64,000 nucleotides of DNA from Pristiophorus japonicus (lineage: Eukaryota), in the NCBI RefSeq assembly GCF_044704955.1, contig NC_091984.1, forward strand, positions 204,104,001-204,168,000, read 5' to 3'. The translations under genes and the position numbers were made by a program. Positions within the stretch are counted from its first letter, which is position 1; each line of letters opens with the position of its first letter. Shown here piece after piece: positions 13,668 through 64,000 of this stretch. The notes under the pieces were generated by a model that worked only from the letters and a program-made list of their open reading frames with translations, was not told where the DNA came from and did not search any database.

Positions 13668-13970
13668 GCAAGTATTGTTGATACCTTTTAATGTAAATAT
13701 TTTTAGGGTTCAAATAAATCTCGTGCTTGGCATCCTGATTGAGACAACATATTTGCCACATTTCTAGGGCGAAGTGTTGAAAAGTAATGGGCCTTTGTGG
13801 TAACTTCTTCTCAAAGTTTTTAAATTAACAGGGGCTGTCTTTTTCAGTTGGATGCTGCAGTTGCATGGTTGCCCCGCGAGTATTCTGTTAAGATTATTTT
13901 TAGGTGTGTGACTGATTTTCTTTTGTGTAAACATGGGAGTGTATATTTGTTGTTTTATGTTGTACTCTAG

Positions 13971-14387
13971 ATGGCATCGCAGTCGTGAAAAGAAGAGATC
14001 ACGTACACGGAGCAAAGAAAAGAGGTCTCGGAGCCGAGACAGGCGGTCAAGAAGCAGAGACAAACGCTCAAGGAGCTGGGACAGGCACTCTCGGAGCAAG
14101 GATAAGCGGTCCCGCAGCCGGGATAAGCGGTCCCGCAGCCGGGATAAGCGGTCCCGCAGCCGAGAGAAGCGGTCCCGGAGCAAAGATAAACGATCCAGAA
14201 GTAGGGACAGACGGACTCGGAGCAGGGACAAGCGTTCTCGGAGCCGGGAAAGACACTCAAGAAGCAAAGACAGGCGCTCAAGGAGTCGAGGCAGGCGCTC
14301 AAGAAGCAGAGAAAAAAAACGACGTCCAAAATCCTGTTCAAGATCACGATCAAGGCACAGGATACGCAGGAGTAGGAGCAGAAGCAA
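13971..14387 (+). CDS. RSRC2: RSRC2 exon 5, expanded RS domain
   Basis: ctctag|ATGGCAT...AGCAA|gtaggt; 417 nt, phase 2-2, RSRSRDK repeats; in frame with the exon at 28323. Confidence 0.88.
14023..14316 (+). repeat. coding 21-nt tandem repeat (14 heptads, RSRSRDK-like)
   Basis: Unit gataagcggtcccgcagccgg, near-identical at 14101-14160 and more diverged outward. Confidence 0.9.
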
Positions 14388-14557
14388 GTAGGTTCATTGC
14401 TCTCTATTTTTCTTCCCTGTAGTTATACAAAACCAGTTGGACATTTTGTGAAATTAAAAGCTTTCCTCAAATTTTTTCCCCTCTTTTCTGTTCAATAACT
14501 CCCTTATTAGGGTTACATCAGTTTGATATCAGAATTTTACCTCTAGCACCTCATGCA

Positions 14558-43626: not shown

Positions 43627-44227
43627 GGGCTAGAATTTCCAAACAATTCGCCAGCGCCGGATTGCCACCCAAAATTCTCACTAAGGTTCTCAAATTAGCG
43701 CCGGTGAAAAATTCCATTTTTTACAAAGAAAAAAATCCGCCCAGCAAAAAAAAATGGACCTTACACCCGATTCTCGGCAAAAAAATGGAATCTTGGGCCG
43801 ATTGGGCGTTTCTTTTTTTTAAAGTGATAATGACTAAAATTCACACCGAGGCTACGGGAGGAGAAAAACACACATTTTTCCAAAAAACGTAAAATAACAA
43901 AATCAGAAAAACATTCTCAGGGCTCTTTTCATTTAAATCACTGCAAGAGAATTTAAAAATAATTAGTAAAAACCCATTTACTTCCCTTTTTTTGCAGGGC
44001 TACTTACCTACCAGCCAGCTCCGCTGCTTCTCACCATTTTTTTTTCAACTTACCAACGGGTCACCGCTGAGCCAAAAATCGGGCGATGCCGGTTTATGGA
44101 CGGTGCCTGCCGGCGGTCCCCTCCCTATCGGTACTTTGAAACCGCCAGCAGAACTCAGCTGTGGAAGTTTTCGCCAACCTGGTTTTTCTCCCAAAACCGG
44201 TCGGTGAAGCAATGGAAATTCCAACCA
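43627..44227. mobile_element. Harbinger-like MITE
   Basis: TIR gggctagaatttcc/ggaaattccaacca; 3-bp TSD ATA restores host catttatagtgtat. Confidence 0.8.
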
Positions 44228-45420
44228 ATAGTGTATGCCCTTGCCTTGTTTTCCCTCCCCAAATGCATTACTTCACACTTCACCAGATTTGAATTCCATT
44301 TGCCACTTTTCTGCCCATCTGACCAGATCATTGATATCTTCCTGCAGTCTACAGTTTTCAACGACACGGTCAATTTTTGTGGCATCAACTACACGACCAA
44401 TTTTTGTAGCATCTGCAAACTTCTTAATCATGTCCCCTACATTGAAGTCTAAATCATTGTTATAAACCACAAAAAGCAAGGGACCTAATACTGAGCCTTG
44501 CGGAACCCCACTGGAAACAGCCTTCCAGTCACATGTCGATCATTGCCCTTTGCTTCCTGGCACTGAGCCAATTTTGGATCCAACTTGCCACTTTCCCTTG
44601 AATCCCATGGGCTTTTACATTTCTGACCAGTCTGCCATGTGGAACCTTGTCAAAAAGCCTTGCTAAAATCCATGTAGATAAACGCGCTACTCTCATCGAC
44701 CCTCCTTGTTACCTCAAAATTCAATCAAGTTAGTCAGACACGACCTTCCCCAACATATCCACATTGACTGTCCATGATTAATTCGTGCCTTTCTAAATGA
44801 TGATTAATACTATCCCATAGAATTTTTCCCAATAATTTGTCCACCACCGAGGTTAGGCTGACTGACCTGTAATTGCTTAGTCTATCCCTTTCTCCCTTTA
44901 ACAGCAGTACAATGTTCGCAGTCCTCCGGCACCACACCTGTAGCCAAAGAGGAGTAGAAAATGATGGTCATAACCTCTGCTATTTCCTCCCGTGCTTCTC
45001 TTAATAGCCTGGAATACATTTCATCCGGGCCTGGTGATTTATCAACTTTCAAAGATGCTAAACCCTAAATATTTCCCCTCAGTATATTTATCTCATTTAA
45101 TATTTCACAATCCTCCTCAACTACAATGTCTGCATCATCAATCTCTTTTGTGAAGATAGAAGCCAAGTATTTATTAAGAACCATACCCATGTCTTCCACC
45201 TCCACACACAGGTACCTTTTTGATCTCCAATAGGCCCTACTCTTAGTTATCCTCTTGCACTTCATGGATTTATAAATCTTTGGGTTTTCCTTGATTTTAC
45301 TATCCTTCCCAATTTTTCTTTCTGTAAAATGTTATTTGAAACTGTTGATTTGTTTTTTTTTCTTGAAGTCAGTATGATGTAATGGATTTTCACATGCCTT
45401 TTTTTTTTGCTCTTTTCAAG

Positions 45421-45510
45421 GATAAGTCACAGACTGCAGAATTATGGGAAAAGCTAAATTTTGGTAACAAGGACCAAAATGTAAAATTCCGAAAATTAAT
45501 GGGCATCAAG
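45421..45510 (+). CDS. RSRC2: RSRC2 exon 9 (SMAP-like domain)
   Basis: ttcaag|GATAAG...ATCAAG|gtgagt; DKSQTAELWEKLNFGNKDQNVKFRKLMGIK. Confidence 0.96.
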
Positions 45511-46279
45511 GTGAGTTGTATTAAAGAACAGTGCAGGCCATAAATTATTTTAGTTTTTTGTGATTTTTTTTTTAAATGTCGAAACACCAGAATAAAATGA
45601 CAAGTGATTACTGAAAAACATTCATGCCATTAGAATGAAATAATGCATACCTGCTATAGTGGATAGTTTTTTAAGTAAAGCTATTTGAACATTCCAGCCA
45701 CTTGTCACTGTTGAACCAAGTGGCTGTGCGAAGAACTGTTACACCTTGGTGTGTGGAAAGGGGTTGACTTTACCTCTTAGTTAAATTTGTATTCTGAATT
45801 AGAGTAGTTCTCTGTTAATTAACCACAGCCACCCAGGATAATCCTTGTTTGAAGTAATGCAATACTTTTTGGCTCTTCAAATAAAATTGTAAATATAAAT
45901 TTTAAGAGACTTTCCTTTTACGGGTGAGTTTGACCGGTAGAACACCAGAATCCCAGATGAAGTGCTCTTCAATGGGGGGAAAAGCTGCATTACCTCGATG
46001 CCAATTTCTACAGAAAGCCCAACCAAGTTGTGGCATAGGAATTCAGATTCTGCAGCTAGTCTGTCTACAATTGGCTGTCATCTCAATTTCAGTATAACTT
46101 TAAATCCCCTTGGTTAATGTATTTTAAACGGTTTAAAAGCAACTTACTGTTCTCCTCTTCAGAGTCTTGCACTGCTCCGCTGTTTGCAGTAATAGTTGGC
46201 ACTTTATCCAGCTGGCTCACTGACGGGTGAGAATGAAGCAACATAAGTGGGCCTATTGTAAAGTCTCTTATAAACCAGG

Positions 46280-46706
46280 TTGTTGTATGATGAGACATTG
46301 AGTAGAATGGGCCTATATTCTCTGGAATTTAGAAGAATGAGAGGTGATCTCATTGAAACTTACAAGATTCTTAGAGGGCTTGACAGGGTAGATGCTGAGA
46401 GGTTGTTTCCCCTGGCTGGTGAGTCTAGAACTAGGGATGGGCCATTTAGGACTGAGATGAGGAGAAATTTCTTCTGAGGGTTTTGAATCTTTGGAATTCT
46501 CTACCCCAGACGGCTGTGTGGATACTCAGTAGTTGAGTATATTCAAGAATGAAATCATAGATTTTTGGACACTAAGGGTACAAGGGATATGGGGATACGG
46601 CAGGAAAGTGGAGTTGAGATAGAAGATCAGCCATGATCTTGTTGAATGGTGGAGCAGCCTCGATGGGGCGTATGACCTACTCCTGCTATATTTCCTATGT
46701 TCTTAT
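46280..46706 (+). mobile_element. CR1 3' fragment
   Basis: GLYSLEFRRMRGDLIETYKIL motif and tail. Confidence 0.85.
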
Positions 46707-46869
46707 GAACCAATATGACAGTGCCCACAGTGTGCTAAGCTGAAAAATGTTGTGGAGATGGGAAGGTAAATCTGTCTTGTGGTTACACAGCGTGTGACCG
46801 ACAAAGCACATTGAGAGGCCTTAATTATCTGTAGTGTTGTTATTTTATTGTAATCATTTTGTTTTGAAG

Positions 46870-47052
46870 GATGAGGAAGAGGTAGGAACCCCAATCCCAA
46901 ATCCTGCTGAAACTTTCAAAACTCTAAAACAGCAGGAAGAAGTGTTCAGGAACTTGGATGCTCAATATGAGATGGCACGATCACAAACCCACACACAAAG
47001 AGGCATGGGCCTGGGTTTCTCCTCTTCGATGAGAGGAATGGACGCAATTTAA
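46870..47052 (+). CDS. RSRC2: RSRC2 last coding exon
   Basis: ttgaag|GATGAG...; KTLKQQEEVFRNLDAQYEMARSQTHTQRGMGLGFSSSMRGMDAI-stop. Confidence 0.96.
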   Translation, partial: DEEEVGTPIPNPAETFKTLKQQEEVFRNLDAQYEMARSQTHTQRGMGLGFSSSMRGMDAI

Positions 47053-47611
47053 GAACAACCATTGTACTTGTGCTTAAGTACATGATTTTTTTATATCGTC
47101 TTCGTCCATGTTGGAGATTTAAAGCTTCATCTTGACTTTCACTTTCCCGTTTACTGAAAAAGCTAGCAGTCTAGCTTGCATGGTTGTTGCAATGCAAAAT
47201 AATTTATTAAAAATGGTTTTGATTGTAAAGATAACTGGGTGTATCAACAATCATACTGTGATAGTTACTCTTCCTAAACATTGGGACTTCATTGAAGAAA
47301 CAGTTGATGGCAATGTTTTGCAACTAGGAAAAGGGAAGTTCTATCATATCTTTTTTTTCTTTTTATGTATTTGAAGTGATGTATGCAGACTGGATTCAAA
47401 CAGCCCAATCTCATTCATATTTTGTTGTAATACTTCATGTTGCTGTATTATGTGATTGCTTTTGTACTAAAACTTGTACAGTTATTTTCATCTTTGGAAA
47501 TGCAAATGATGACTGTGTAGTTGTAAATTAGGATTTAGTTTGTTTGTAAGTACTTATTCCAGTGCTGAAAAGCGCTTTATAGTGTATTGTTCATTATCAA
47601 GCTTTCTGGAC

Positions 47612-47635
47612 AATAAATGGATGATTTTGAATAAA
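47612..47635 (+). terminator. tandem polyadenylation signals of RSRC2
   Basis: AATAAA at 47612 and 47630 after a U-rich 3' UTR of about 560 nt, followed by GT-containing sequence. Confidence 0.6.
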
Positions 47636-48869
47636 CCACTTGTGTAATGAGATCTAGAATGTTCTGTGAGCATGGTCAGTAATTCTATCACCAACAGATA
47701 TGTTAGTAATTAAAAGGAGAGGTTATTCAGTCTACTCTGCTTCTCAAGCCCCATTTTTTTGATTAACCTTTCTCAACGCATCATGGATCTGCAATTTTTC
47801 CGTTATTTCATGTATCTTATTTTCCTCCTGTAAAGCACCTTGGGATGTTCTATAAATGTCAGTTACAGAATAGCCTGTCAATTGGTCTACGCTGGGCCGC
47901 GACCTGGCTGCTGGTCTCTGCTACGCCGCTCCTGGGCCACGACCCTGCTGACCCCTGCCTGTGGGCTCTCGCTGTCCTCCGATCTCCCGCTGTCCTCTGA
48001 CCTCTTCTGGGCCCTGACCCCACCGCTGAGCTCCACCTCGCACCAAGAGTCGCCAACCAATCTGGTCGTTGCCCAGGAACAGCGCAGCATGGGCCAACAG
48101 TGAGTTCGTGAGGCCGCCATTGTGACATACAAAACCCATATCTATCATTTGTTCACATGCCTGATTACTATTCAGTAGCCTGTGGACACTTGAGAGTCTA
48201 GGCTCACCTTGCTAAATGAGGAACTGGAGGAATGCTGTCATCCTTGGAACTGTATCCCCCTAAGAGTCAGTGTTCAGCATAAAAGTAACCTGCAAGGAGA
48301 GTTGAATGGTGGAAAAACCAACAATCACTTCTTGAAATGATACTATGAAAATGAAATACTGAAACACCTTATGGTTGCAGATTGCCTCCAGAATTATTCA
48401 AAGCATCAGTTCTCAACAGAAACCTAACGAACTGTTCAAGGAGGCATAGTGGCTACCCACTTAACATTAGTGCAACTTGGGAGGGAGGGCTATGAACCAA
48501 AATGAGAACATAATGATTTTTTTTAAATGGTAGATGGCAGGAGGGTGAGATAGCTACTTTATTCTTTAAAGTGGTTGTACATAAACAACCAGCATGGATT
48601 CTGACTATAAAGTTAGTAGCACAAGAAAGATAATGAATATGATTAAGCAAAAGAAGCATCTTGTCTTTCATGTCTGAAGACTCCTGACAGATTCCTCTGC
48701 TTTTGTCAGTTGCATATCTTAACTTCTCTGGTGTAAAATACATAATAACATTTACTCCCATCTAGGAACTACAGATAATGTAGGAGAATTAAGCATAGAA
48801 CAAAGCTTTCCGAAAGGCTCCACTGTTAAGGCAGTAACAGCTATGCAGACCGGCAAGTTCAGAGGTCTA

Positions 48870-49240
48870 ATTGCTAGCTTGTGCTGTAGTGATTGAGGTG
48901 CTACAATTGACCTTGGTGGATCTTCTTGTGGACTTGCTTTTGGGCCTGGCTAAACAGCATTTTGTAAGTCTAGGATGGGCGGGTCGTTCTGGCTGCCTGC
49001 CTTTCTTGTGCAGTCCTGTGTGTGCCAAGAGGATCCTGGAGAGGGAGTGTCCACTGGTATGCTTGATGTCTTCCCCGACTGGTGGGCACCACAGGGTATA
49101 GAGTGTCTTATCGACACTGATGACCTGATTTAGTTGGGAAGATTCCCTTTACTTTTGTTCGGACTATGTTGCTTATTTTGGCTGCTTTTAGTTTGATTAG
49201 ATCCTATGTTTCTTACATTAATGGTGCCCTAAAAGTGGCA
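48870..49240 (+). mobile_element. Tx1/L1-clade LINE 3' remnant
   Basis: DLLVDLLLGLAK resembles the Tx1-type ORF2 C-terminus (from recall). Confidence 0.5.
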
Positions 49241-50139
49241 CTTGTGATGATTTTTGTTTGGTGACCTTGGGGCAACCCAGTGTCACCCTTGGTCCATCAA
49301 AGGGGACCCTGCTTTTGGTAGAGGGAAAAAATAAGAAGGGCTCTTCTAATCACTATCCAGCAACTCTTACTGGAACTGTTTGGTGAGAAGGATCAACTGC
49401 TGCTGTAATGCCCTTTCCCTGATTGAATAAATAGCCTGCCAACACTCAGATTGAGAGTGGCTAATTAGATGAGTTGTTGGAGGGTGACTGCTACTTGGGG
49501 AATCACACCACAGAAAGATGTAAGCACCTTCAGGAAAGCAGAATACTGAGATAAATGATAGTGATGCTGTGTTTATGTTTACATACTACTGATGAAGTGC
49601 AGGGACTTTTGCTGTTCTGGCCAATATTCTTGCCTTAACTGGACAGTCATCAGATTTGTTGTTTGTAGGACCTTGCTCTGCATATTTAATGATTACATAA
49701 CAAGTAACTAATTTGTTATGAAGCCCTTTTATAATGTCCTGAATAAATGCAAGTTCTTTTACTGGATAGTGAGCAGCAGCAGTCACATTCCAATCATTGC
49801 CCCAGCTGCGATCACGTAACTCATGGTAAATTAGAATTTCAGCCAGGGACTTTCTGGCCCATGCAACTTAATAGTACACCAAGCAGTATTTTTACCCATC
49901 AGACAAACAAATTAAATAATCAAACTTTACCTGTCTTCAAACATTGCATTTGATTCAAGAATTATCACAGTGAGTGATTTAAATGCCTCTCAATGAGCTT
50001 TGCAACATACACAATGCCAAAAACAAAGAAATTCAGCATCCCAAATCCAACTTAAAACTGGTTGAGAAAAAGGCTGAAAAAAAATCAACTCAAAACTTCT
50101 TTACCTGAAGACAAATCTGCTAGGAGAACCCATTTTAAA

Positions 50140-51050
50140 AAATTCATTCTGGGGATATGGGCATTGCTAGTAAAGTCACCAGTTATTGTCCATCCCTTGT
50201 TTTTGAGAAGGTGGGAGTGAGCCTTCTTGAACCGCAGTGGTCCATGTGATGAAGGTACTGGCACAGTGCAATTAGACAGGAAGTTCCAGGATTTTGACCC
50301 AGTGACCATGAAGGATTGGCAATCTGTGTCCAAGTCAGGTTGGTGTGTAACTGTCTTATGTGCTGGAGGTCGCTGGTTTAGGTAGTACTGTTGAAAGAAC
50401 CTTGGCGAGCTGCTGCAGTGCATCCTGTAGATAGTACACACTCCAGCCATTGTATGCCGAGGGTGGAGGGAGTGGACGTTTATGGTGGTGGATGGACTGC
50501 AGATCAAGTGGACTGATTTGTCCTGGATGGTAAGCTTCTTGAGTGCTGTTGCATCAATCCAGACAAGTGGAGAGTATTCCATCGCACTCGTGACTTGTAG
50601 GTGGTGGACAGACCTTGGGAAGTCAGGTGAGCCACTTGCTGCAGAATACCCAGCCTCTGTCCTGTTCCAGGAGCCATGGCATTTATGTGGCTGGTCAATG
50701 GTAACCCTCAGGATGTTGATTGTGGGGAAATTGGCAATGGTAATGCCATTGAATGTCATCGGGAGGTGGTTAGATGACTGTTGGTCATTACCTGGCACTT
50801 GTGTGGCACAAATGTTACACCACTTATTAGCCCAAGCCTGGTTGTTCTCCAGGTCTTGCTGCATGTGGATATGGATTGCTTCATTATCAGGAATTGTGAA
50901 TGGAGCTGAACCCTGAAATCATCAGCAAACAGCCCCACTTCTGGCCTTATGGTGGAGAATGGCTCACTGCCACCTTCTCATGGGCAATAGAGATGGGCAA
51001 TAAATTCTGGCCTTGCCAGCGACGCCCACATCCCAGGAGCAAATTAAAAA
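50140..51050 (-). mobile_element. decayed LINE RT/3' fragment
   Basis: GLFADD, QQDLENNQAWA, MEYSPLVW and FKKA remnants; same family as 1790-2440. Confidence 0.75.
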
Positions 51051-52649
51051 ATGATGAAACAGCTGGACAATTGCGCCTAGGACGTTGCCCTCAGGAATTC
51101 CTGCAGCGGTATAGTTGGCAAAGGTTCTACCATTAGTTGCCAATGCTGTGTCTATTAGATATACCTCACTGACTCAAAGCTCCATCTCAGACTGGTACAT
51201 CGGATCAGCGCTTGAAAAAAGGGCAATCGAAGATGGGCACAGATTTGGGACACAGCAACAGATTCAAGGACATCAGAGGAAAGGGAGATTAAATGGGGTG
51301 GTAATTTGTAAGGACAGATGGGTCAAGGTGGTTACTTTGAGGCATTTACTTAGAGTAATGGTCAATTTGCTTCAAGGTAACAAAGGGCTCCGAGCATATC
51401 TTGGTCAGTACGGTCACTGCCTTCAGGAAAAGAAGAACATTTGGCAGAGGGTGTAATTACAGTGTGACAAGTTTACATAGGCAGTTTCCATTCTGTGAAA
51501 AGGAAATATAAAACTAAGGACAGAATGTATCATTTTAAAATGGGGACTGAATTACACCTGTATTCCACAGTCCAATTATCCCTCACTCTCCGATCTCGCT
51601 TCTCCTGAAAACTACACTTTGTCTACCACGGAAGATCGATTAGTCAATCTAAAGCACCAATTTTACATTGGAGCAGGAAAATAGGCAGGTAGGGGTAAAA
51701 GCGAGCATCAAGCCACACCCAACCTTGACAGCACAAGGTCTGGGTGATTTTAACTCTTGGGCCTCATCTGCATGCCACTGGTCAGCTGCCCGCTCGAAAC
51801 AGCCGGGTGGAAATTCAGGGAACAGGAGGCTCCCAGCCTGCACTAATGAGAAGCTCATCAGCAAGAAAGCAAGTTGCGATGAGAGAAGCGGGCGAAGCCT
51901 AAACATCCCTTGTGGATCCCACATCTGCTCCTGGTCCCAAAAGGAAAGATGAAAAAAAACTTGCCTTAAATGGCCTCTTATGGTCCCAGATCCTCCTCCT
52001 GCCTTCACCTGGCTGGAAAGACACAATGGCTTCTCAACTCAAGCCAGTTAAAATTTCAGTCGGGGCCCAAGTGTCCAATTACCAGCATGTCAAGTTTGCA
52101 TAAGCAGTTTCCATTATAACTGGTCATGATGCTGCCACTTTCTCCATAGGTGGAAGATTAAAACATCTCCATCATGCGACTGTGGAGCTCCTAATCAGAC
52201 CCTGGAGCGCATTGAGCACTGCCCTCAGAGGAAATTTGCAGGCAGCCTATAAGATATCCACGCTGTTACACTTGGCCTGGATATCCAACTTGGATATTGA
52301 TGTTTGATTTGCTTTGCTTTGCTACTACCGTACAAAAGAAGACGATAAATTTATAATGGAACTGTCTGTAGATGTAAGATTTTTAATGTACAATATGTAT
52401 TATTGTACTTTAATATAAATAATGTCAAAATAAACAATAAACAATCATGACTATGCAACAGTAAGAGGAATTTAAGAAGCAATCCATGGTCACATGGAAT
52501 CTTTTCAGACAATAAAAGTAGTTTGATGGATCTACAGTTTAGTATCCAAATCATGCTTACAGTCCGAAACATAAACAGGGTCCAGACCAAAATATAAATT
52601 TGTCTGTTCTCTTCACAGATGCTGGCCTCCTGTTTGTTTCCAACATTTT

Positions 52650-54105
52650 GGGGCCAAGTTTCGACCTGAGTTGCTCCTGTTTTTTTGGAGCAACTGGTTA
52701 AGAATGGAGTATCTTAGAAATTGCAATTCTCGGCATTTAGTTTGCTCCAGTTCTAGTCAGATTTTTTTTTTCAAAAGGGGGCGTGTCTGGCCACTTATGC
52801 CCGTTTTGAAAGTTTAGTCAGTGAAAACATACTCCAAACTAACTTAGAGTGGAGTAAGTGTAGATTTTTGTACGCTCAGAAAAACCTTGCCTACACTTAG
52901 AAAATCAGGCGTAGGTTACAAATCAGGCATAGGGAATGGGGGGGGGGGGGGTTTAAAGGGAAGTTTACAAACATTAAACACTTCAGTTTTACAAATAAAG
53001 AGCCATCATCAATAATAAATTATAAATACATCAATAAATCAACCAATAAATCAAAAAAAAATAATAAAACAAATTTAAAAATCAATAAATAAAACATTTT
53101 CTACTTACCGACTGCAACACCGGGAGACCTCCAATAGCATGCTGGGACGGCCCCCCCGCCCCCCCCCAGTGTGTCTCTATCTCTCTGTCTGTCTGTGTGT
53201 GTGTCTCTCTCACTCTCTGTCAGTGTCTNNNNNNNNNNNNNNNNNNNNNNNNNNNNNNNNNNNNNNNNNNNNNNNNNNNNNNNNNNNNNNNNNNNNNNNN
53301 NNNNNNNNNNNNNNNNNNNNNNNNNNNNNNNNNNNNNNNNNNNNNNNNNNNNNNNNNNNNNNGAGGGGGGCAGAGGGAGGGAGAAGGGCGGAGGGAGGGA
53401 GAAGCGGTGGCGGGGAGGGGGAGAGGAGAGGGAGGCTGAAAGGGGCTGGCCGGGCCCAAGACTTTGGGCGGGGCCTGCCCCCAGCGCCGGAGTTAAAGGT
53501 AGGTGGCCGGGGGTCGGGTCGAGTCCGTGGCGGGGGAGAGCAGGTCGGGTCCAGGGGTTAGGGTTAGAGTCCGGGGGGGGGCGTCGGGGCGGGGGAGCAA
53601 GGGTCGGGGGGGGGGGGAAATCGAGTCGGTTCGGGTCCGGGGGGGGAGGAGCGGGGGTCGGGTCCGGGTGGGGGGAGCGGGAGTCGAGTCGGGTCCCGGG
53701 GGGGTCGGGAGCTTGGGGGGGTGGGGGGGAGGGTTGAGAGCCAGCTGAAGGGAGGAAGTGGGAGGTGCAGCCTGATCTGTGCAGCCTGATCCATGCCGCC
53801 CCAGTGAGCCCATTCGGCCAGGGCTAGGGGCTGCGTGCTTCGGGCCCCTCCCATACAGTTTTGGGCACCTGGAGCTACTGCACATGCGCGCCCACTGTGG
53901 CGCGCCTGTGCAGAGGTCCCGGCACTGTTTTCATCGCAGGGACCTGGCTCCGCCCCACAGTTCGTGCTGTGCCGCGCCCGGCTCCAGAGGGGACCTGCAG
54001 GGAGCTGGAGAATCGGTAAGTATTTTTTAGGCGCACTTTCGAGCGCAAAAAACGGGCGTCCAGGTCGGGGCTGCGCCGTTCTAGGCGCGGCCCGAAACAT
54101 GGGCC
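52650..54105. mobile_element. non-autonomous Harbinger-like element (copy C), contains an assembly gap
   Basis: ggggccaagtttcg...cgaaacatgggccc flanked by TTT/TTT; gggtcgggtcc-rich core. Confidence 0.8.
53229..53362. other. assembly gap (N run)
   Basis: Run of N between (CT/GT)n and G-rich repeats. Confidence 0.99.
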
Positions 54106-54378
54106 CTTTATGTCTTTGTTTCAAACTTCCAGAATCTACAGTATTGTGTTTTTCTCACACTTTTAGGCTATTGCTTACAAAGTCCCTGCACCACCCCACT
54201 TTCTCTCCCAGCAACAAACCAAGTTTATGACAGTGGATGGTTAGTGAAATAACATCTTCAAATGCCTGTGTGGAGTTCGAAAATAATCTTTTTACTTGTT
54301 AAAAATTATCTTCAAAAGGTATCCAAATTGAAGCAGTGGCATCCAGTTTAAATACTGTCCAAATTCCTACTTAAAGAT

Positions 54379-55275
54379 TTATTTACAGATCAAGCTAGAA
54401 TACAAAACATGAGCTACACCAGTGATTAGATTATGATTGGCAAACTCTAATATAAGCAGCACTATGGGATATTCACTTTGCCGTTTCCACAAGGCAGAAT
54501 TATCATCAAGCCCCATCCAGCTGAACAGCAAAACTTTCATAGCTTCAGGAAATAGTTTGTCTACCAGTTCCTCAGCAGGTGGTAAGTCTGTGATTCTGTC
54601 AATGTGGGTTGTTTTAAAGTCTTCTACTTGTCTGCTGATAGAGGCATTAGCAGAATAAAACTGATGTCCCAACCAATTACTTACAGTATAAAGCATGTGA
54701 CTACAATAAATAGAATTAACCCCTGTTTCAGTGGTTTCTGTTTTGATAATTAAGTCTTGAAGATGGGTCAGAAGTTGCAGCATCCTATCAGCCAACTTCT
54801 GTGCAGATATGGTTTCACTTATTAGGAGTTCTACAAAATCAACTAACAGTGTAATTACTTTCTCACGTTCCTTTTGTATTTTCAATGGTAAAATTTTAAA
54901 AGCCTGATAAACTGATCTAAACTTGATGGACAAAGAATCATAATCCACAACTTCTGCATACAGTGAATTAGCTGCACAAGGTTCTTCACTTTCTTGTAAA
55001 ATTCTTTCTTCTTGTGCACAGTAGTTATGGTCACCCTGATTCAAAGTACTGTTGTTGTAGGTACAATCCAAAGGTGAAGTAGCTGTCCTATATACATTAA
55101 TATCAGGTACCAGATTAGTACCTTGAATGCTTGAATGTAATGCAGAGGAACTTTTGTGGCTCTTTATTTCAGGAAGGCAATTTTCAAGCAGTTCTTCATT
55201 CGGGAGGTTTTGCAGAATCTTAACATCATATTTTTGATTCAGAATGGGGTCACTTATTCTTGCTTTCCACAAATC
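54379..55275 (-). CDS. uncharacterised gene, last coding exon
   Basis: 897-nt open frame with no transposon motifs; acceptor ttttcttgtggtag|GATTTG; ends LLILEFANHNLITGVAHVLYSSLICK-stop. Confidence 0.88.
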   Translation of the reverse strand, partial: DLWKARISDPILNQKYDVKILQNLPNEELLENCLPEIKSHKSSSALHSSIQGTNLVPDINVYRTATSPLDCTYNNSTLNQGDHNYCAQEERILQESEEPCAANSLYAEVVDYDSLSIKFRSVYQAFKILPLKIQKEREKVITLLVDFVELLISETISAQKLADRMLQLLTHLQDLIIKTETTETGVNSIYCSHMLYTVSNWLGHQFYSANASISRQVEDFKTTHIDRITDLPPAEELVDKLFPEAMKVLLFSWMGLDDNSALWKRQSEYPIVLLILEFANHNLITGVAHVLYSSLICK

Positions 55276-55545
55276 CTACCACAAGAAAATAAAATTATTA
55301 TGGTCGTACAAAATATCAGATAGCCATTTGGTTTGATTGAAATCAAAATTGCACTACTTTTCACAAAACATAGTTTAAAACTTCCTGCATCAATGCAGTT
55401 AAAGTCAGGAATTCAGCAGTTTGGCAATGCATATATCATTGATCTAAACCCACAATTCCACACTCTGTGGTCCTTCTTATTTGCGCTAAACATTGTACTA
55501 TCTTCCCGTACCTGAACAAATTTAAGACTAATATTTTAATTGATA

Positions 55546-55893
55546 CATGTTGAACCTCCCTTATCCGGAACCCTCGGGACCTAGATAAGGGATTTTTCCG
55601 GACGAGGGATGGTCACTTTAAATTGGATGGTACAAGTATTCAAGTATTGTGTAAGGGGATATCGGGGCTGGCTGGTTTCGGGCTGGGAGTGCGGCAGAGA
55701 GATCGGGGTGGGGGGTGGGGGGGGAGGATAGATCACAGGGTCAGGCCAGCGATTGCGGGAGTCGGCAGCGAGGGGGGACTGCAATTTGTTCATGTCGGAG
55801 TTCTGCGCATGCACCACCTGGTAATCGGGAATGGTTCTGGACAAGGGGTGGTTCCAGATAAGAGAGTTCTCCGGATAAGGGAGGTTCAACCTG
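55546..55893. mobile_element. Tc1/mariner (pogo/Tigger-like) MITE
   Basis: TA TSD; TIR ca(t/g)gttgaacctcccttatccgga at both ends. Confidence 0.85.
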
Positions 55894-56118
55894 TAATACA
55901 TTTAATAAGTGTCAAAAATAAACTTTCAATATTGTAAAATGCTATAGCTTTGTATTACAACATATGCATTAATAAAGCAAATGAAGAAATTTTCATTTTA
56001 AGTTACATTACACCAAGGACCACAATTAAGGCCAAATAATGCTTTATATAGTTGTGATCTATTCAATAGCAGCAAAATCTTTTACAATTGACATTTTTCT
56101 TTCAAATGCTAATAGTAC

Positions 56119-56252
56119 CTGAAGCATAACAAGGACTTCTAACTGTTGCTCTTTACTGTACATCTCAAAAGCAACACGAAACAGTCCCTGAATGCTGTAA
56201 AACCACAAACTGTTCACCACAGTTGGTATCTTCAGTCCTTCAAATCGAAATT
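56119..56252 (-). CDS. uncharacterised gene, coding exon 3
   Basis: ttttcag|AATTTCG...CTTCAG|gtacta; EFRFEGLKIPTVVNSLWFYSIQGLFRVAFEMYSKEQQLEVLVMLQ; phase 1 to 0. Confidence 0.8.
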
Positions 56253-56439
56253 CTGAAAACAAGTATTTTACAGAAATCATAAATATGAATGGAAGAGAAA
56301 TGCTGAAGAGCCAATCTGGGAGGAGGCTGCAATCAACTTTTTTTGTTGACAATCTTCAGATGTCAAGGGCAGCAAAGGAGATTACAGCAGAGGCTAGGTT
56401 GTCATCAGAGATGTGGAGAGGTCACAGTAAAAGGAATAG

Positions 56440-57010
56440 CCAGCAGGGGAAATAACAACGTATAAAACAGGTAAAGCTGGTCGAGGAATAGAAGATTACA
56501 AGTCAGAGAAGGTCATGATCAAATTTTACAGCACTCTGGTTTGACCAAATCTTGAATGCTGTGTCTAGTTCTGGTTATCAAAACAGAATAGATACATTTA
56601 AGCCCTAGAGGTAGTGCAGAGAAGAGCCACATAGCTGATCTTTACTGTCAGGGGTCTGAATTAGGAAAAAGGATTGGAGACAGTTGGATGTTTCAGACTT
56701 AAAATGAGGCATCTGAATTATTGAAATGTACAAGATAAATGTAGAAAAGTATTTCAAATGAAGATGTGTGAGGAAGACAAAGGGACATAGGTTCAAACTA
56801 GTTAAGGCAGATTTAGGCCTGATATCAGCACCTTCTTCATGCAATGGACTTCCAAATGGAAAAGTAGAAATGAACATCATGTAATTATTTAAGAAACAAT
56901 TGGATAAGAAGCCAATGAGGGGACTTTAGTGTCTTTCTGCATGGAAAAACTAGGATTGATGAACTAAGATGGGGTAAATGGTCTTTATCATCCTTAATTA
57001 TCTTGTGTAT
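56440..57010 (+). mobile_element. old CR1 3' fragment
   Basis: Degenerate LECCVxFW and RGH-type motifs. Confidence 0.6.
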
Positions 57011-57138
57011 ACGAAGGACAAAGGTAAAGTGAGTAGTCAAACCTAAAAGAAGTGTTTTCCTTCTACAGGTTTACATACTCCTTGGAGTATGTCCTGTAGA
57101 TTCTACTTTGTGGTTTCAAACAAGAATTGATGTAGTAC

Positions 57139-57268
57139 CTGAACTAAAGCTGAGCTTTGTTGCCAATCCTTTCTTTGCAAATTTTGCATGAATTCTTGGA
57201 TGATTTTCAGTGCGGATGCCAGTTTTTGCAACAACATCAGCACCAAGAAAAAGAGGGGTCAAATTCTC
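57139..57268 (-). CDS. uncharacterised gene, coding exon 2
   Basis: Strong pyrimidine tract ctctttccctcacctttag|; ENLTPLFLGADVVAKTGIRTENHPRIHAKFAKKGLATKLSFSS; donor CAG|gtacta; phase 0 to 1. Confidence 0.8.
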
Positions 57269-60174
57269 CTAAAGGTGAGGGAAAGAGAAATTAAAAAATG
57301 TAAGAAATGTTTTACTAGATATAAAATCCATAAACCTTGTGGTTTTATTTTCTGCTTTGTTCATTTTCTATGCACCATATCTCATTTTTACTGAGTTAAT
57401 TCTCAATGAGACTTAATAATCCAATATCTGAGCAAGGTAGGCTTGCAGCTTTCTAACTGATCAGCCAGTCTGATTCATTGATGGGGCTTGGAAGAGTTTT
57501 TCTGTTACTGGGGGATTGAGAACCTTCTGATTCAACTCCCGACTGACCAATGCTTTAGCAGATAGAGTGATCTGAGCTTAACAAGCAGTGGGATGCTAAC
57601 CACTGCTCTGTGCTGTTAAGCTGTGTGATTTTAGCCCATTAAACTCCAGTACTGTGCACGTTTGTGGATCCCAAAACCTTAATTTTTGGAAACCTGTAAT
57701 TAAGTTCTCTAGGCTACGACATTTGGGGCATGTCCGTACCTAGAGAGGGTGTGCCATATCAGGCAAATTAAAATTGTACTTGTGCATTTTTCAATTTGAG
57801 TTAGCAAAAATACTTCATTTTCCAACTGGAAATGTAAGTGACTCTTAAGCATAGCTAAGGCATGCTGTCCAATCTTCTCCTTCCCCCTCCTAAATAATAA
57901 AATATTCTAAATTAAAGCGTGACCTGGTCGAGTACATTTCCCTTGCTTAGCGCATTATAGAGTAGTACTGTACTTCAATGTACATACATGAGGCTGGACT
58001 GTCATCTAGAAACAATGAAAATACATTAACAAATCGGAATATCTTTATAAGGCAAAATTATTTACTACAACAACAGGATAACATATATCATTATATGTAT
58101 GTACTAGTAACTTGCTGTTAGCATTATCCATAGTCAGGTAATAAATACAAGTTTTTTTATATGCAAGCTGATGGCAGAGTACGGAAAGAGATTGCAGAAA
58201 CTCACTCCACAGAGCCTGCTACTATAATTATAACGGTCGATATAATTACAATGGTAAATGTGACCAAATATTATGACAACAGGAAGTAAGGTTTGTGGTT
58301 TGGAAGTGCGTGCCCTGCAGTAGATTTTTAATAATATATCGATAGCATTATTCTATACAGAAATTATTTTACCCAAAGTACATTAATAATTGAGACAAAA
58401 AAGTCAATCACCAAAGTAGAAATTAACAGCTGATCCTAGTCAGACCACACTAGTATTTTAAAGTTTATAAAGCAATGTTGAAATTTGACCAGTAGCAGAG
58501 AAGGAGAGTCAAATTTGAAGATTGTATTTAATGCAGTGAAGGAAAGGTGAATGCAACTAGGGTAAATGCTTATTCTAGTGTATTGTTGCAAAGTACAGCA
58601 GCTTCCTATTACCTTGGATACTCTGGGGAGGCCAAGGAACTTCATCTGACCATACGAAAGTTGCAAGAAGTACCCTTCACTGCTGAGAAAATCTTCTTCC
58701 ATAGAGCCTCAATCAAGCTCTTCATGGGCCTCCTTACCTTGGGACCAAAAAGCTGGGCCCTCCTTTGCCAGGTTATAGGCAGTAACGTCTCAACTGGAGT
58801 TTTTTTTAAGTTTATGGGTTTAGTTCCCTGAAGAAACACCAACCTCAGGTATTGCTTAAGCCACGTTGTTACAGACAGAAAATGGCTTCCTTGCTCCCAT
58901 CAGCTGCTGCAGCAGCACTAGATTTTCCTTCCTCTTCCCCTAGAGGACACTAATAGCACTAGCAGCCTGCCATGAATATTTAATAAGGGTGTGCATGTGT
59001 TTCAGATAGACATTAAACCAAGGCCCAATTTGCCTGGTAACACAGCACGGTTCGAAGAGCAAGGCAGTTCTCCTGATGTCCTGGCCAATATTTGTCCCAC
59101 TGCTAAGACAAATTAATTGGTCATTTAGCTCATTGCTGTTTGTAGGACCTTTACAAATTGGCTGCTGTGTGTTTCGACAAAACAACAGTAACTACAGTTC
59201 AAAAATAATTAATTGGCTATGTCTATTTTCTCTCAAACAAATTAAAATCAAGCAATTCTAGTTTCTAATGTCTGTACAGTTAAATGATGTGCTGGGAAAG
59301 GATCCATGTGATTTAATTGATCATCTTTATTGGTCACTAACAGACATGCCCAGCAAGTGCACTTCCTTTGACACAGCTAAGGTCATACTTTGACCAGCCA
59401 AAGGACCAGTTCCAAAAGGTTCTGAAGCAAGTTGAGAGAAATGTTATCATACAGGTTAAAGGAAGTTGTAAAGAGTTTTTGAAGCAGAATGTTTCAGAGT
59501 GAACTGAACTGAGTAAATTTAAAACAGAAGTGTTTAAAAGAGAGAAAGAACAGAACAACCTAAGTGAGTTTCAGTCAATTAATTAATTCATGTAGTCGGT
59601 GTTGTTCAGGCAAACAAAAGACTGTACAATATATTACAACAGTTACATTAACAACTTGCATTTATATAGCACCTTTTAATGTAGAAAAATGTTCCCATGC
59701 ACTTCATAGAGGTTTAATCAAGAAAAAAAAGAAAAACAAGCTGAAATGTTTAAGCAAAGAGAAATACAATATAACAGTACAGAGAAATAATACACACACA
59801 CAAGGTTAGCTAAAGTCAGAAAGTGAAGAGAGCGACTGAAGAAAGACAGCAACTACCGCAGACAATGATTTGTCGTAGGTATCCTTCGGTGAAGCTGGAA
59901 CATCCCACAGAATGTCAAAGCTGCCCATGCCACAGAATTCAGAGGTTGTATATCTAACTTTGAATCTTTTTGAGAATTAGTTTCCCAGTGCAGTGAAAGC
60001 AATCAATAAAATGACTTAGATAAATTTTGTCCAAAGAGGTTTTCATTTAAATAAGCCTCATTACATTCAAACCCAAGATATGCACACTGGCATACTGATG
60101 GAACAGGACATCTCAAGGAGATATAGCTTTACTTTCCCAGTGTGTGTAGTATTACCCATATGTGGAACAATTCA

Positions 60175-60525
60175 GCCAGTTCAGTTGGGAACACCCTCGC
60201 CTCTGAGTCAGAAGGTTGTGAGTCCCTCTCCAGTGCGTAACTGAGAGAGTGCTACACTGTCAGAGGTGCCGTCTTTCAAATGAGATGTTAAACAGAGGCC
60301 CCATCTGCTCTCCCTGGTGGACATAATAGATCAATGTTCTGGCCAATGTCTATCCCTCAGCCAACAGATTATCTGATCATTATTTCATTGCTGTTTGTGG
60401 GACCTTGCTGTTGGCTGCCGAGTTCCTACATGACAACAGTGATTGCACTTCAAAGAAGTACTTAATTTGCTGTAAAGAGCTTTGGGAATTCCGGAGATTG
60501 TGAAAGGCGCTATGTAAATGCAACA
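60175..60525 (+). mobile_element. DeuSINE/SacSINE1-like SINE
   Basis: ctcgcctctgagtcagaaggttgtg head; gtcagaggtgccgtctttc...gttaaacagaggcccc core. Confidence 0.7.
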
Positions 60526-60816
60526 CTTGCTTTTTTCTTTTAACTCTTAATTTGTTTTGAGCAAGTCAGATGCAGCTCCAAACAATTTTGTTTAGCCTAG
60601 ATATGACATTTGCCTGTTGCCAAATAAGATTATGAAATGTTTCCTTGTGTATAATTAACCAGCCAGCATACCACACAAAAGGAAAAAGAGAGATGAACGT
60701 TGACTACAGACTGTTCATGATTATATTCATATTTCACTTATTTAAACAGAGCAAGAAAGCAATAATACATATGGGCATTGCTCTAATGCAGTAAGTTGCA
60801 ACAGATAAAAAGTGAT

Positions 60817-62822
60817 ACATAAGCACATAAGAAATAGAAGCAGGAGTAGGCCATACTGCCCCTCGAGCCTACTCTGCCATTTAATAAGATCATGGCTGAT
60901 CCGATCATGGACTCAGGTCCGCTTCCCTGCCCGCTCCCCATAATCCCTTATTCCCTTATCAGTTAAGAAACTGTCTATCTCTGTCTTAAATTTATTCAAT
61001 GACCCAGCTTCCACAGCGAATTTAACAGATTTGCAATCCTCTGAGAAGAAATTCCTCCTCATCTCAGTTTTAAATGGGTGACCCCTTATTCTAAGATTAT
61101 GCCCCCTAGTTCTAGTCTCCCTTATCAGTGGAAACATCCACTCTGCATCCACCTTGTCAAGCCCCCTCATAATGTTATACATTTCGATAAGATCACCTCT
61201 CATTCTTCTGAATTCCAATGAGTAGAGGCCCAACCTACTCAATCTTTCCTCATAAGTCAACCCCCTCATCTCCGGAATCAACCGAGTGAACCTTCTCTGA
61301 ACTACCTCCAAAGCAAGTATATCCTTTCTTAAACATGGAAACCAAAACTGTACGCAGAATTCTAGGTATGGCCTCACCCTGTATAACTGTAGCAAGACTT
61401 CCCTGCTTTTATACTCCATCCCCTTTGCAATAAAGGCCAAGATTCCATTGGCCTTCCTGATCACTTGCTGTACCTGCATACCAACCTTTTGTGTTTCATG
61501 CACAAGGACCCCCAGGTCCCGCTGTACTGCAGCACTTTGCAATTTTTCTCCACTTAAATAATTTGCTCTTTGATTTTTTTCTGCCAAAGTGCAGAACCTC
61601 ACACTTTCCAACATTATACTCCATCTGCCAAATTTTTGCCCACTCACTTAGCCTATGTCCTTTTGCAGGTTTTTTGTGTCCTCCTCACACATTGTTTTTC
61701 CTCCCAGCTTTGTATCATCAGCAAACCTGGCTACGTTCCACTCAGTCCCTTTATCCAAGTCGTTAATGTAGATTGTAAATAGTTGGGGACCCAGCACTGA
61801 TCCCTGCAGCACCCCACTAGTTATTGATTGTCAACCCAAGAATGAACCATTTATCCCAACTCTCTGTTTTCTGTTAGTTAGCCAATCGTCTATCCATGCT
61901 AATATATTACCCCCGTGAACTTTTGTCTTGTGCAGTAACCTTTTATATGGCACCTTGTCAAATGCCTTCTGGAAGTCCAAATACACTACATCGACTGGTT
62001 CCCCTTTATCCACCCTGTTCGTTACATCAGTCATTGAAGGTTGGCATGCAGGTGCAGCAGGCGGTTAAGAAAGCAAATGGCATGTTGGCCTTCATAGCAA
62101 GGGGATTTGAGTACAGGGGCAGGGAGGTGTTGCTACAGTTGTACAGGGCATTGGTGAGGCCACACCTGGAGTATTGTGTACAGTTTTGGTCTCCTAACCT
62201 GAGGAAGGACATTCTTGCTACTGAGGGAGTGCAGCGAAGGTTCACCAGACTGATTCCCGGGATGGCGGGACTGACCTATCAAGAAAGACTGGATCAACTG
62301 GGCTTGTATTCACTGGAGTTCAGAAGAATGAGAGGGGACCTCATAGAAACATTTAAAATTCTGACGGGGTTAGACAGGTTAGATGCAGGAAGAATGTTCC
62401 CAATGTTGGGGAAGTCCAGAACCAGAGGTCACAGTCTAAGGATAAGGGATAAGCCATTTAGGACCGAGATGCGGAGGAACTTCTTCACCCAGAGAGTGGT
62501 GAACCTGTGGAATTCTCTACCACAGAAAGTTGTTGAGGCCAATTCACTAAATATATTCAAAAAGGAGTTAGATGAGGTCCTTACTACTAGGGGGATCAAG
62601 GGGTATGGTGAGAAAGCAGGAATGGGGTACTGAAGTTGAATGTTCAGCCATGAACTCATTGAATGGCGGTGCAGGCTAGAAGGGCCGAATGGCCTACTCC
62701 TGCACCTATTTTCTATGTTTCTATGTTTCTATGTTTCTATCCTCAAAGAATTCCAGCAAATTTGTCAAACATGACTTCCTCTTCATAAATCCATGCGAAC
62801 TCTGCCTGACTGAATTATGCTT
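60817..62822 (-). mobile_element. CR1 3' portion interrupted by a young CR1
   Basis: ORFs 60913-61647 and 61831-62034; the host resumes at ctcaaagaattcc. Confidence 0.9.
62025..62740 (+). mobile_element. very young 5'-truncated CR1
   Basis: Open RT C-terminus differing from the 28479 copy at 3 residues; (ttctatgt)n tail. Confidence 0.95.
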
Positions 62823-63078
62823 TCAATACCATATCTGTTCTAAACTTTAACCATTCACTTTCTAAAATGTTAATCTTGATTTTTAAATGTATTCAAATGA
62901 ATCAATTTGCAGTAATAGCATGTATGAAGTAACATCCGTCATCATACCCTCCTCTGTTTATAATGTAAATAATATTTTCAAGAATTAGGAAATTACACTT
63001 TATCATCCAAAACAGTACGAATTTGGCACTTCGTATAAATATAACGAAAACTCTAATTTTATTATTTTAAATACCAAC

Positions 63079-63201
63079 CTCCACCTGGAAATCTTGACAC
63101 ACCTTAATTGAATTGGGAGGGTTCAAGAATACAAATCTGAATTTCCTGAGACCCACGCTCCATTCTGGTAAACACACGGGAAAATGTTCACTGGATGCCA
63201 T
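63079..63201 (-). CDS. uncharacterised gene, coding exon 1
   Basis: Minus strand accATGG Kozak; MASSEHFPVCLPEWSVGLRKFRFVFLNPPNSIKVCQDFQVE|gttggt. An acceptor cctccag lies just upstream (exon start 63222). Confidence 0.75.
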
Positions 63202-63720
63202 GGTTCATTTTTGCCAGATCCCCTGGAGGAACACAATTACTCGGATCTCACAATGAAGACAGTTTCCAGTCAAAAAGAAACTCCAAAATAAAGAGGTAAA
63301 TCTTGAAATGTACAACAGGTTGCTCAGCAACTGAAAGAGAAAGACGAGTGTCTCCGAAATTATGACTCTTCATCAGAAAGGAGTTCTAGGCCTACCAGAA
63401 CCTCACTTGTTTTTGGGCTTAAACATTTCACTGATGTTTGCTGTAACTCGCTCCTAACATCTTCTTTGTGTTGCCCACTCCATATAACAGTTCGGCTTTA
63501 TATCCACAAGAACTTCATTAACGCAGCTCTCCACATGAGGAAGACTCCGATAGTTCATTAATATTATCAGTAGTAATAATACGTCAACTAATAATTATAA
63601 ACCACCGATATTAGGCCAAGTAACTCCTTCTGTTGTCATGGAACGCGTTCGGGTCAACAATTGCTTGCTCTCTGACCTTCGCCCTTTCACCCGGCGGACG
63701 TCACTCAGCCTAGTGACAAG

Positions 63721-63895
63721 ATGGCCGCTGAGCGGGTGGAATTGGATTTTGGGGACCGCCAACTGTTCGAGGAGTTTGAAGATTCAAAGCCTTCTCACGT
63801 CCGTTTTACCGACTCCGAGGATGCGGGCGAGACGGAGGCTATGAAGGGAAAGCTGCAGGAATGCGAGGAGAGCGTAGGTTACCTGAAGGCGGAGA
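63721..63895 (+). CDS. ZCCHC8: ZCCHC8 (NEXT complex scaffold) coding exon 1
   Basis: MAAERVELDFGDRQLFEEFE...HVRF...LQECEESVGYLKAEN resembles recalled human MAAEVYFGDLELFEPF...HTRF...LRQCEETIEQLRAEN. It is syntenic with RSRC2 and ends at an ATATCCTT donor. Confidence 0.88.
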
Positions 63896-63903
63896 ATATC
63901 CTT
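63896..63903 (+). promoter_or_regulatory. U12-type (AT-AC) 5' splice site
   Basis: ATATCCTT matches the minor-spliceosome donor consensus RTATCCTT exactly where protein similarity ends. Confidence 0.8.
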
Positions 63904-64000
63904 CTGTTTCAGTGAAATGTGACTCACAGAATCAAACGGGGCGCCTCAGGAGCGATTGGCTCGTGTCGGAGAAGCCGCGTAAAGTGGGATTAAACGGGGC

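Follow-up and report, generated by a model that had tools for sequence, protein, structure and literature searches.

A Single-Copy Shark Gene Missing from Amniotes Encodes a Candidate THAP-like Regulator with a Putative HCF-1-Binding Motif

Introduction

The THAP proteins are built from a folded N-terminal domain followed by a D/E-H-x-Y sequence, which lies in a disordered stretch beside a helical region (PMC13631171). This sequence is reported as the consensus used by factors for binding to the HCF-1 Kelch domain (PMC13631171; bioRxiv 10.64898/2026.03.19.712392), and at CpG-island promoters, HCF-1 reportedly forms a bridge between such factors and TFIID (bioRxiv 10.64898/2025.12.28.696747). 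Here, we describe a gene of the shark Pristiophorus japonicus whose protein shows the same layout as THAP1, THAP7, THAP11, and other HCF-1-binding factors. The gene lies on the minus strand of a window of 64,000 nucleotides (nt), the whole stretch of DNA that was analysed (assembly GCF_044704955.1, contig NC_091984.1, positions 204,104,001 to 204,168,000 of the forward strand; coordinates below are those of the window), in which four coding exons located between 63201 and 54379 encode 427 residues. On balance, structure models and conservation favour a nuclear, chromatin-associated, THAP-like regulator that would recruit HCF-1 but is built from different parts.

The differences from the THAP proteins are a distinct N-terminal fold, a globular C-terminal domain, and an HCF-1 binding that is here predicted. 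The THAP zinc finger (C2CH) gave no Pfam match in the exons of the window or in the shark homologue P0003, and it was found in one of 56 homologues scanned. The best structural and language-model matches of residues 1–135 were instead Bro-N (PF02498) and KilA-N/APSES (Mbp1, Bqt4) domains, with which two signature stretches align; unlike these, the shark protein shows no Pfam or PHROG match, is encoded by an intron-bearing cellular animal gene, and carries a C-terminal domain without clear match. For the domain with which fungal APSES factors bind DNA, a viral origin is held. A third relationship is that with the homology domain of SKI, SnoN, and DACH, which are metazoan nuclear cofactors: it matches the N-terminal fold with Z scores of 4.6–4.7, although with an identity of 3–4%, without a Pfam match, and ranking below Mbp1 and the granulovirus domain Orf22-N. 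No description of the domains, motif, or function of the gene was found in the literature covered, which excludes supplements and most subscription journals, and this literature also yielded no relevant account of Bro-N or KilA-N domains in animals. Previously, the gene was known through its database annotation and its absence from amniotes through a table row; its anatomy is new here.

Protein Anatomy

Coding exon 1 (63079–63201, 123 nt; minus strand, as for every feature of the gene) encodes residues 1–41, with which the N-terminal domain begins. Exon 2 (57139–57268, 130 nt) provides the core of this domain with its conserved basic helix (residues 42–84), exon 3 (56119–56252, 134 nt) a further part of it (residues 85–129), and exon 4 (54379–55275, 897 nt) its end, the linker, the helical bundle, the C-terminal domain, and the stop codon (residues 130–427). 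A structure model made on P0003 (89.7% identical to the window protein) with 95 aligned sequences showed, at a mean predicted local distance difference test score (pLDDT) of 82, an alpha/beta domain (1–161), a disordered stretch (166–237, pLDDT <50), a three-helix bundle (242–312), and a helical core up to the end of the chain. In the window, the predicted disordered linker (54949–55164, around residues 167–238) is poorly conserved except for one island, the sequence DHNYC (55018–55032, residues 211–215), which is the candidate HCF-1-binding motif. The three-helix bundle (54724–54936, around residues 243–313) is variable in sequence, and the C-terminal helical core (54382–54723, residues 314–427) is the most conserved part. 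Identity to fish and amphibian proteins was 56–81% in exons 2–3 and in the last 112 residues, and 16–20% in the linker.

Searches against known families were largely silent. Pfam returned nothing meaningful on the four exons, on the 56 homologues, or on the 95 aligned members, and neither did PHROGs (95 members) nor the sequences of solved structures searched with the profile of alignment A1. With the whole model, Foldseek against PDB gave no expectation value (E) ≤0.001, and with the whole protein, the Atlas search gave nothing ≥0.9. A wide VIA-align search with the whole model was set aside as uninformative, being dominated by generic helix matches to residues 240–314. The C-terminal core of the window protein (314–427, 140 sequences), folded alone, reached a pLDDT of 93.7 and a predicted template modelling score of 0.85. 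Its best match in the wide VIA-align search had a Z of 3.9 among 48,161 chains, and Foldseek against PDB again gave no E ≤0.001; a missing structural match of this kind does not prove a new fold.

The Candidate HCF-1-Binding Motif

The window protein carries DHNY at residues 211–214, in agreement with the D/E-H-x-Y consensus. The pattern [DE]HxY was present in 109 of 122 vertebrate-grade matches, against 5.1 expected from shuffles, and in 61 of 132 distant ones (4.8 expected). Eleven of the 13 vertebrate proteins without it were shorter than 290 residues, one showed NHDY, and one was a full-length protein lacking the motif; once the matches of a caecilian query were added, the consensus was found in 161 of 179 vertebrate-grade homologues. 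Alignment A1 contains 50 vertebrate rows, of which all 50 keep the histidine, 49 the tyrosine, and 48 the following cysteine, and just two other columns of the linker reached 26 of 50. The place of the motif in the chain changed across the family: it was in the linker in all of the 99 vertebrate cases that could be located, and in a loop of the C-terminal domain in 36 of 40 located distant cases. Amphioxus has it in the linker, and those molluscs and myriapods that have it show it in a variable loop of the C-terminal domain, where D/E-H-x-Y occurred more often than any other pattern of this form (in 33 of 68 loops, versus 11 for the next). Three members of the myriapod clade (P0152, P0229, and P0146) presented four tandem DHxY motifs in this loop.

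The residues around the motif were compared with the rules measured for HCF-1 binding, namely a small residue at x, no charge at Y+1, and no proline at Y+2, with a hydrophobic residue at H-4 preferred but not required (bioRxiv 10.64898/2026.03.19.712392). Vertebrate motifs had a small x in 162 of 162 cases, a charged Y+1 in one of 162, and proline at Y+2 in none of 162; the corresponding figures for the distant motifs were a small x in 72 of 75, an uncharged Y+1 in 71 of 75, and no proline at Y+2 in 59 of 75. A cysteine followed the motif in 160 of the 162 vertebrate motifs and in 4 of the 75 distant ones.

Several observations weigh against HCF-1 binding. The preferred hydrophobic residue at H-4 was found in 25 of 162 vertebrate motifs, and the window protein has an asparagine there; the disfavoured proline at Y+2 was found in 16 of 75 distant motifs; and the motif is missing from the two named cnidarian members and from several ambulacrarian ones, so that it is not the core function of the family. 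In addition, the reported screen found binding for only 66 of its 347 human D/EHxY peptides (bioRxiv 10.64898/2026.03.19.712392), and THAP5 is described as having the motif yet showing no co-precipitation (PMC13631171). Since so few of the human peptides bound, the consensus alone proves little, and the argument is that of conservation: the motif is kept amid drifting surroundings and reappears elsewhere in the chain, and thus behaves as a functional short linear motif. On these grounds of sequence, we consider it likely that the motif binds the HCF-1 Kelch domain.

The genome of P. japonicus contains three HCF-type Kelch loci, and one of their exons was identified as host cell factor 1. Human has two HCF paralogues, i.e., one fewer. 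The Kelch exons of this type were located on contigs C12, C15, and C34 (loci L002 to L013), and one exon match of C34 lies 1.8 Mb from the others, which is perhaps the consequence of an assembly break. A complex prediction between the shark HCF-1 Kelch domain and a 38-residue piece of the P0003 linker scored 0.58, versus 0.02 for the best control, with peptides being outside the tested range of the tool; contact agreement was at least 32% and the partner pLDDT at least 36. Of the 78 solved pairs, 51 attained the mark applied to these predictions, as did 2 of 108 mismatched pairs, but with a score of 0.60 or lower it was attained by only 5 of the 78 and by all 4 mismatches that passed. The prediction thus leans slightly towards binding of the linker to the HCF-1 Kelch domain.

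The N-Terminal Domain

In a library of viral structure models, 18 of the 50 rows listed were named Bro and 14 of the 50 were unnamed, with a best E of 1.4e-3 (none ≤0.001). Among solved chains, five rows covered the N-terminal domain only: granulovirus Orf22-N (Z 6.0, root-mean-square deviation (rmsd) 4.4, 99 residues aligned), Mbp1 (Z 5.6, rmsd 3.3, 89 aligned), SnoN (Z 4.7, 3.9, 89), Bqt4 (Z 4.6, 4.1, 91), and SKI (Z 4.6, 5.2, 90), whose domains we take to be one fold group. A language-model search with residues 1–150 gave Bro-N clusters in 21 of 30 matches, the best of them at 0.90–0.91. Lysine or arginine was kept in 78–100% of 95 rows at eight positions, which are clustered in and after the helix formed by residues 60–78.

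Other results argue against a DNA-binding domain of this kind. The first 160 residues are near neutral (20 K/R, 18 D/E), and the fold matches are middling (Z ≤6, no Foldseek E ≤0.001) and were made with the whole model. Profile–profile comparison with 65 bacterial and phage Bro-N domains, a narrow set with 4.8 effective sequences, gave a probability of 2.9% and a score of 18, while block shuffles reached up to 22; both signature stretches were aligned, with a score no better than that of the shuffles. Furthermore, domains of the same fold bind proteins, as is known for SKI and as shown for Bqt4 by the title of its structure entry, solved with Rap1. Pfam Bro-N (PF02498) gave no match in 56 proteins at E 0.01, was not among the 25 of 63 families listed for the 95 members at E 1, and had no match in the P. 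japonicus genome, as expected for a split exon. Taken together, the three kinds of search agree in direction, none of them being decisive, and the N-terminal domain probably folds like a Bro-N/KilA-N/SKI domain, as judged from the models, and it cannot be filed as Pfam Bro-N.

Proposed Function and Alternative Explanations

In the mechanism that we propose, the N-terminal domain, with its winged-helix-like fold of the Bro-N/KilA-N/SKI type and its conserved basic face, would hold DNA or chromatin, an activity that we regard as reasonably probable. The linker would act as a flexible tether, the motif within it would plug into the Kelch propeller of HCF-1, and HCF-1 and its partners would in this way be brought to target promoters. 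The helical C-terminal domain may oligomerise or bind a second partner, which is a guess.

The main rival of this THAP-like mechanism is an adaptor without DNA binding of its own, in which the N-terminal domain would be a protein-binding module, as in SKI/SnoN and Bqt4, and the protein would bridge HCF-1 to another complex or compete HCF-1 off other motif-bearing factors. The evidence from the motif fits it equally well, three of the five structural matches of the N-terminal domain (SnoN, SKI, and Bqt4, the last one solved with Rap1) are of this sort and fall within approximately 1.4 Z of the best, and the near-neutral net charge of the domain is in agreement with it. Nevertheless, we regard the adaptor as rather unlikely, given that the eight basic positions in and after helix 60–78 are kept from cnidarians to vertebrates and that Mbp1 and Bro-N rank over SKI. 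A further point against it is member P0210, from the crinoid Anneissia japonica, in which a THAP zinc finger is fused before the N-terminal domain and an EHxY motif is found in the linker; this may reflect either a genuine fusion or the merging of gene models. A different possibility is that the D-H-x-Y-C island serves another partner, be it a different Kelch protein, a site of modification, or a metal site, with the main job of the protein residing in its two folded domains. The nearly invariant cysteine of the vertebrate motifs (160 of 162), the mostly missing hydrophobic residue at H-4, the cnidarian members without motif, and the failure of most human consensus peptides to bind in the reported screen (bioRxiv 10.64898/2026.03.19.712392) would all be accommodated in this way. 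However, distant members keep D-H-x-Y, the anchors needed by HCF-1, but not the cysteine (4 of 75), the x and Y+1 positions obey the measured rules, and the motif is found again in another loop and as tandem copies, which make this possibility improbable.

It was also considered that the gene could belong to a mobile element or a virus, either selfish to this day or a recent insertion in the interval from RSRC2 to ZCCHC8, as many DNA viruses and phages have the N-terminal fold and one member carries a THAP domain. This has very little chance of being correct: only one genome match was obtained among nine candidates, the gene has three spliceosomal introns, orthologues occur across jawed vertebrates with local synteny reported (PMC10416458), a quick tree groups the taxa sensibly, and no Pfam family of transposases or reverse transcriptases was detected in the 56 and 95 members scanned. 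A recent or active element is largely refuted by the single copy and the vertical pattern, whereas the N-terminal domain may have an ancient viral origin. In line with the preliminary description, which was derived from the letters of the window, the gene is neither a well-characterised one nor a multicopy transposon.

Gene Structure and Transcript Support

The joined coding sequence has 1284 nt, corresponding to 427 codons and one stop, with no internal stops, and the three introns (5810, 886, and 843 nt; phases 0, 1, and 0) all run from GT to AG with pyrimidine tracts. With A at −3 and G at +4, the start codon lies in a strong Kozak context. The exon coordinates, matching phases, canonical introns, and strong start that had been proposed for the gene were thus confirmed. 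Four public assemblies were aligned to positions 54000–64000; their runs have no RNA label on record, so that the spliced contig itself constitutes the evidence. Contig 24 of run X6 (1392 nt, from a related organism, about 95% alike) contains 54334–55274, 56118–56252, and 57139–57270 in one continuous record, and because it joins exons 2, 3, and 4 in this way, introns 2 and 3 are removed from the transcript in exactly the manner proposed. Near-identical contigs from another organism break exactly at splice sites. Contig 14 of X16 breaks off at 63078 and leaves 129 letters, which is the remainder of exon 2; contig 6 of X1 has 264 letters left past exon 1 (129 + 134 + 1), equal to exon 2 plus exon 3; and contig 22 of X17 has 157 letters left, for which exon 2 and part of exon 3 are a rough fit only. 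Of the proposed junctions, therefore, those of introns 2 and 3 were found joined, and that of intron 1 is one that we infer from the leftover lengths.

No gaps were found within three residues of any splice junction in 10 of 10 homologues aligned, and the exon chain is not a product of chance, because annotated shark proteins show 87.6–89.7% identity to the joined protein in alignments that are gapless at the junctions. A single copy is present in the genome (one match among nine candidates scored). The 5′ leader (63202–63665) is at least 464 nt long, contig 14 of X16 covering 63078–63665 without gaps, and the 3′ untranslated region (54088–54378) is given as far as contig 8 of X16 reaches (54088–55277, one difference). 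Within the 464-nt leader, there are nine upstream ATGs in total, including an out-of-frame one located 7 nt 5′ of the start codon, which suggests a damped or regulated translation, or else a splicing of the leader that is not seen here. One upstream ATG is in good context and overlaps the main start out of frame.

Fragments of LINE-type (long interspersed nuclear element) reverse transcriptase and endonuclease fill introns, intron 1 among them, at very high depth (28576–31285 and 60913–62728, both on the minus strand, and others). An Rfam search over 44000–64000 gave no match.

Orthologues, Family Range, and Loss in Amniotes

As judged from whole-length homology, the gene is the orthologue of zebrafish si:ch211-110p13.9 (gene 562347), Xenopus tropicalis LOC101733994, and Callorhinchus LOC103184291, single-copy genes annotated only as uncharacterised. 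These records carry no function, domain, or Pfam family, and no substantive difference from the shark gene was found. The joined protein was 87.6–89.7% identical to three shark proteins, 75.6% to that of a ray, 68.1% to that of a chimaera, and 42.6–49.6% to the proteins tested from bony fish, lungfish, and amphibians, all of which align end to end. A search with the C-terminal part recovered 366 proteins; the best 120 of these, where named, came from cartilaginous and ray-finned fish, coelacanth, lungfish, and amphibians, and they were mostly labelled si:ch211-110p13.9 or uncharacterised. In a library of 50% clusters, 139 matches were obtained, 30 of which were looked up for names. In addition to Xenopus tropicalis, these 30 included amphioxus, an acorn worm, three echinoderms, four molluscs, an annelid, two myriapods, Nematostella, and Xenia; insects, nematodes, tunicates, and jawless fish were not among the named matches, most distant matches being unnamed. 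A quick tree of 10 vertebrate proteins and the 51 of 132 distant ones having both domains grouped the vertebrates, with amphioxus beside them, and clustered molluscan subgroups, myriapods, and anthozoans sensibly.

With a caecilian protein as the query, 403 matches were obtained, and the best 120 of them passed from amphibians directly to fish, with three rows unnamed and no named amniotes; the same database yielded many amniote proteins for HCF-1. In agreement with this, Table S1 of PMC10416458 lists orthologues of LOC101733994 in six of six fish and in none of three non-placental mammals, four birds, six reptiles, and the placentals, with a local synteny that is loosely defined there as one shared gene within 5 Mb; marsupials and a monotreme were among the mammals tested. 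The Xenopus orthologue thereby shares the loss pattern of the amniote-lost genes of that study's WINEGRET screen (ag1, ras-dva, and sod4), but it shows no link to regeneration, since among the eight supplementary files its identifiers are confined to Table S1, and they appear neither in the tail-regeneration tables nor in the main text (PMC10416458). In the portion of the c-answer screen covered, the identifiers of the gene are not mentioned (PMC6871517).

The preliminary description had presented the gene as unnamed and uncharacterised, lost in the mammalian lineage or gained elsewhere. Uncharacterised it is, though its orthologues carry si:ch211-110p13.9 or LOC names; the gain elsewhere is contradicted by homologues in amphioxus, a hemichordate, echinoderms, molluscs, an annelid, myriapods, and cnidarians; and the loss, correct for humans, is amniote-wide and not merely mammalian (PMC10416458, Table S1), as was tabulated in 2023, though not discussed there. 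From the sequences recovered, cnidarians and bilaterians already had the gene in their common ancestor, and its loss falls on the amniote stem. A more far-reaching scenario, speculative and in its entirety doubtful, is that of an undescribed family of animal transcription factors of cnidarian–bilaterian age, which would have taken its DNA-binding domain from a viral regulator of the Bro-N/KilA-N type, acquired HCF-1 docking twice independently within bilaterians (in the linker of chordates and in the C-terminal loop of protostomes), added a new helical C-terminal fold, and been discarded at the origin of amniotes.

Genomic Neighbourhood

The last exon of an RSRC2-like gene ends near 47050 and the first exon of a ZCCHC8-like gene begins at 63721, both on the plus strand, so that the gene lies between them as described before, head-to-head with the latter and tail-to-tail with the former. 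The names RSRC2 and ZCCHC8 are our assumption, based on the sequences of the two genes and on the first reading of the window; in human, we take both genes to be direct neighbours. A CpG-rich stretch (63600–64000, no strand; GC 54%, CpG observed/expected 1.04) is shared with the ZCCHC8-like gene, and the transcript contigs of the two genes approach within about 50 nt. The loss of the gene in amniotes had to spare the promoter that it shared with this neighbour. This head-to-head promoter is very compact; a half site like that of the cyclic AMP response element lies at 63698, and a YY1-like word covers the start of ZCCHC8. In the ZCCHC8-like gene, the first intron begins with ATATCCTT at 63896–63903 (plus strand), and the transcript contigs of all four runs stop at 63897; by its consensus, we take ATATCCTT to be the donor of a minor-spliceosome AT-AC intron. 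The RSRC2-like gene presents a long arginine/serine repeat run in one exon (13764–14422, plus strand), with several frames open.

Significance

The anatomy described here turns a gene known from a table row into a testable candidate regulator, present in zebrafish and Xenopus and not in mouse and human, and it would escape human-centred interactome screens. The candidate may feed into HCF-1, which is reported as a co-activator of CpG-island promoters (bioRxiv 10.64898/2025.12.28.696747). If the proposed reading is true, it would supply a conserved domain without known structural relative and a clear example in which a short linear motif has moved or has arisen two times inside one protein family, and it would enlarge the small set of transcription-factor classes of animals by one family.

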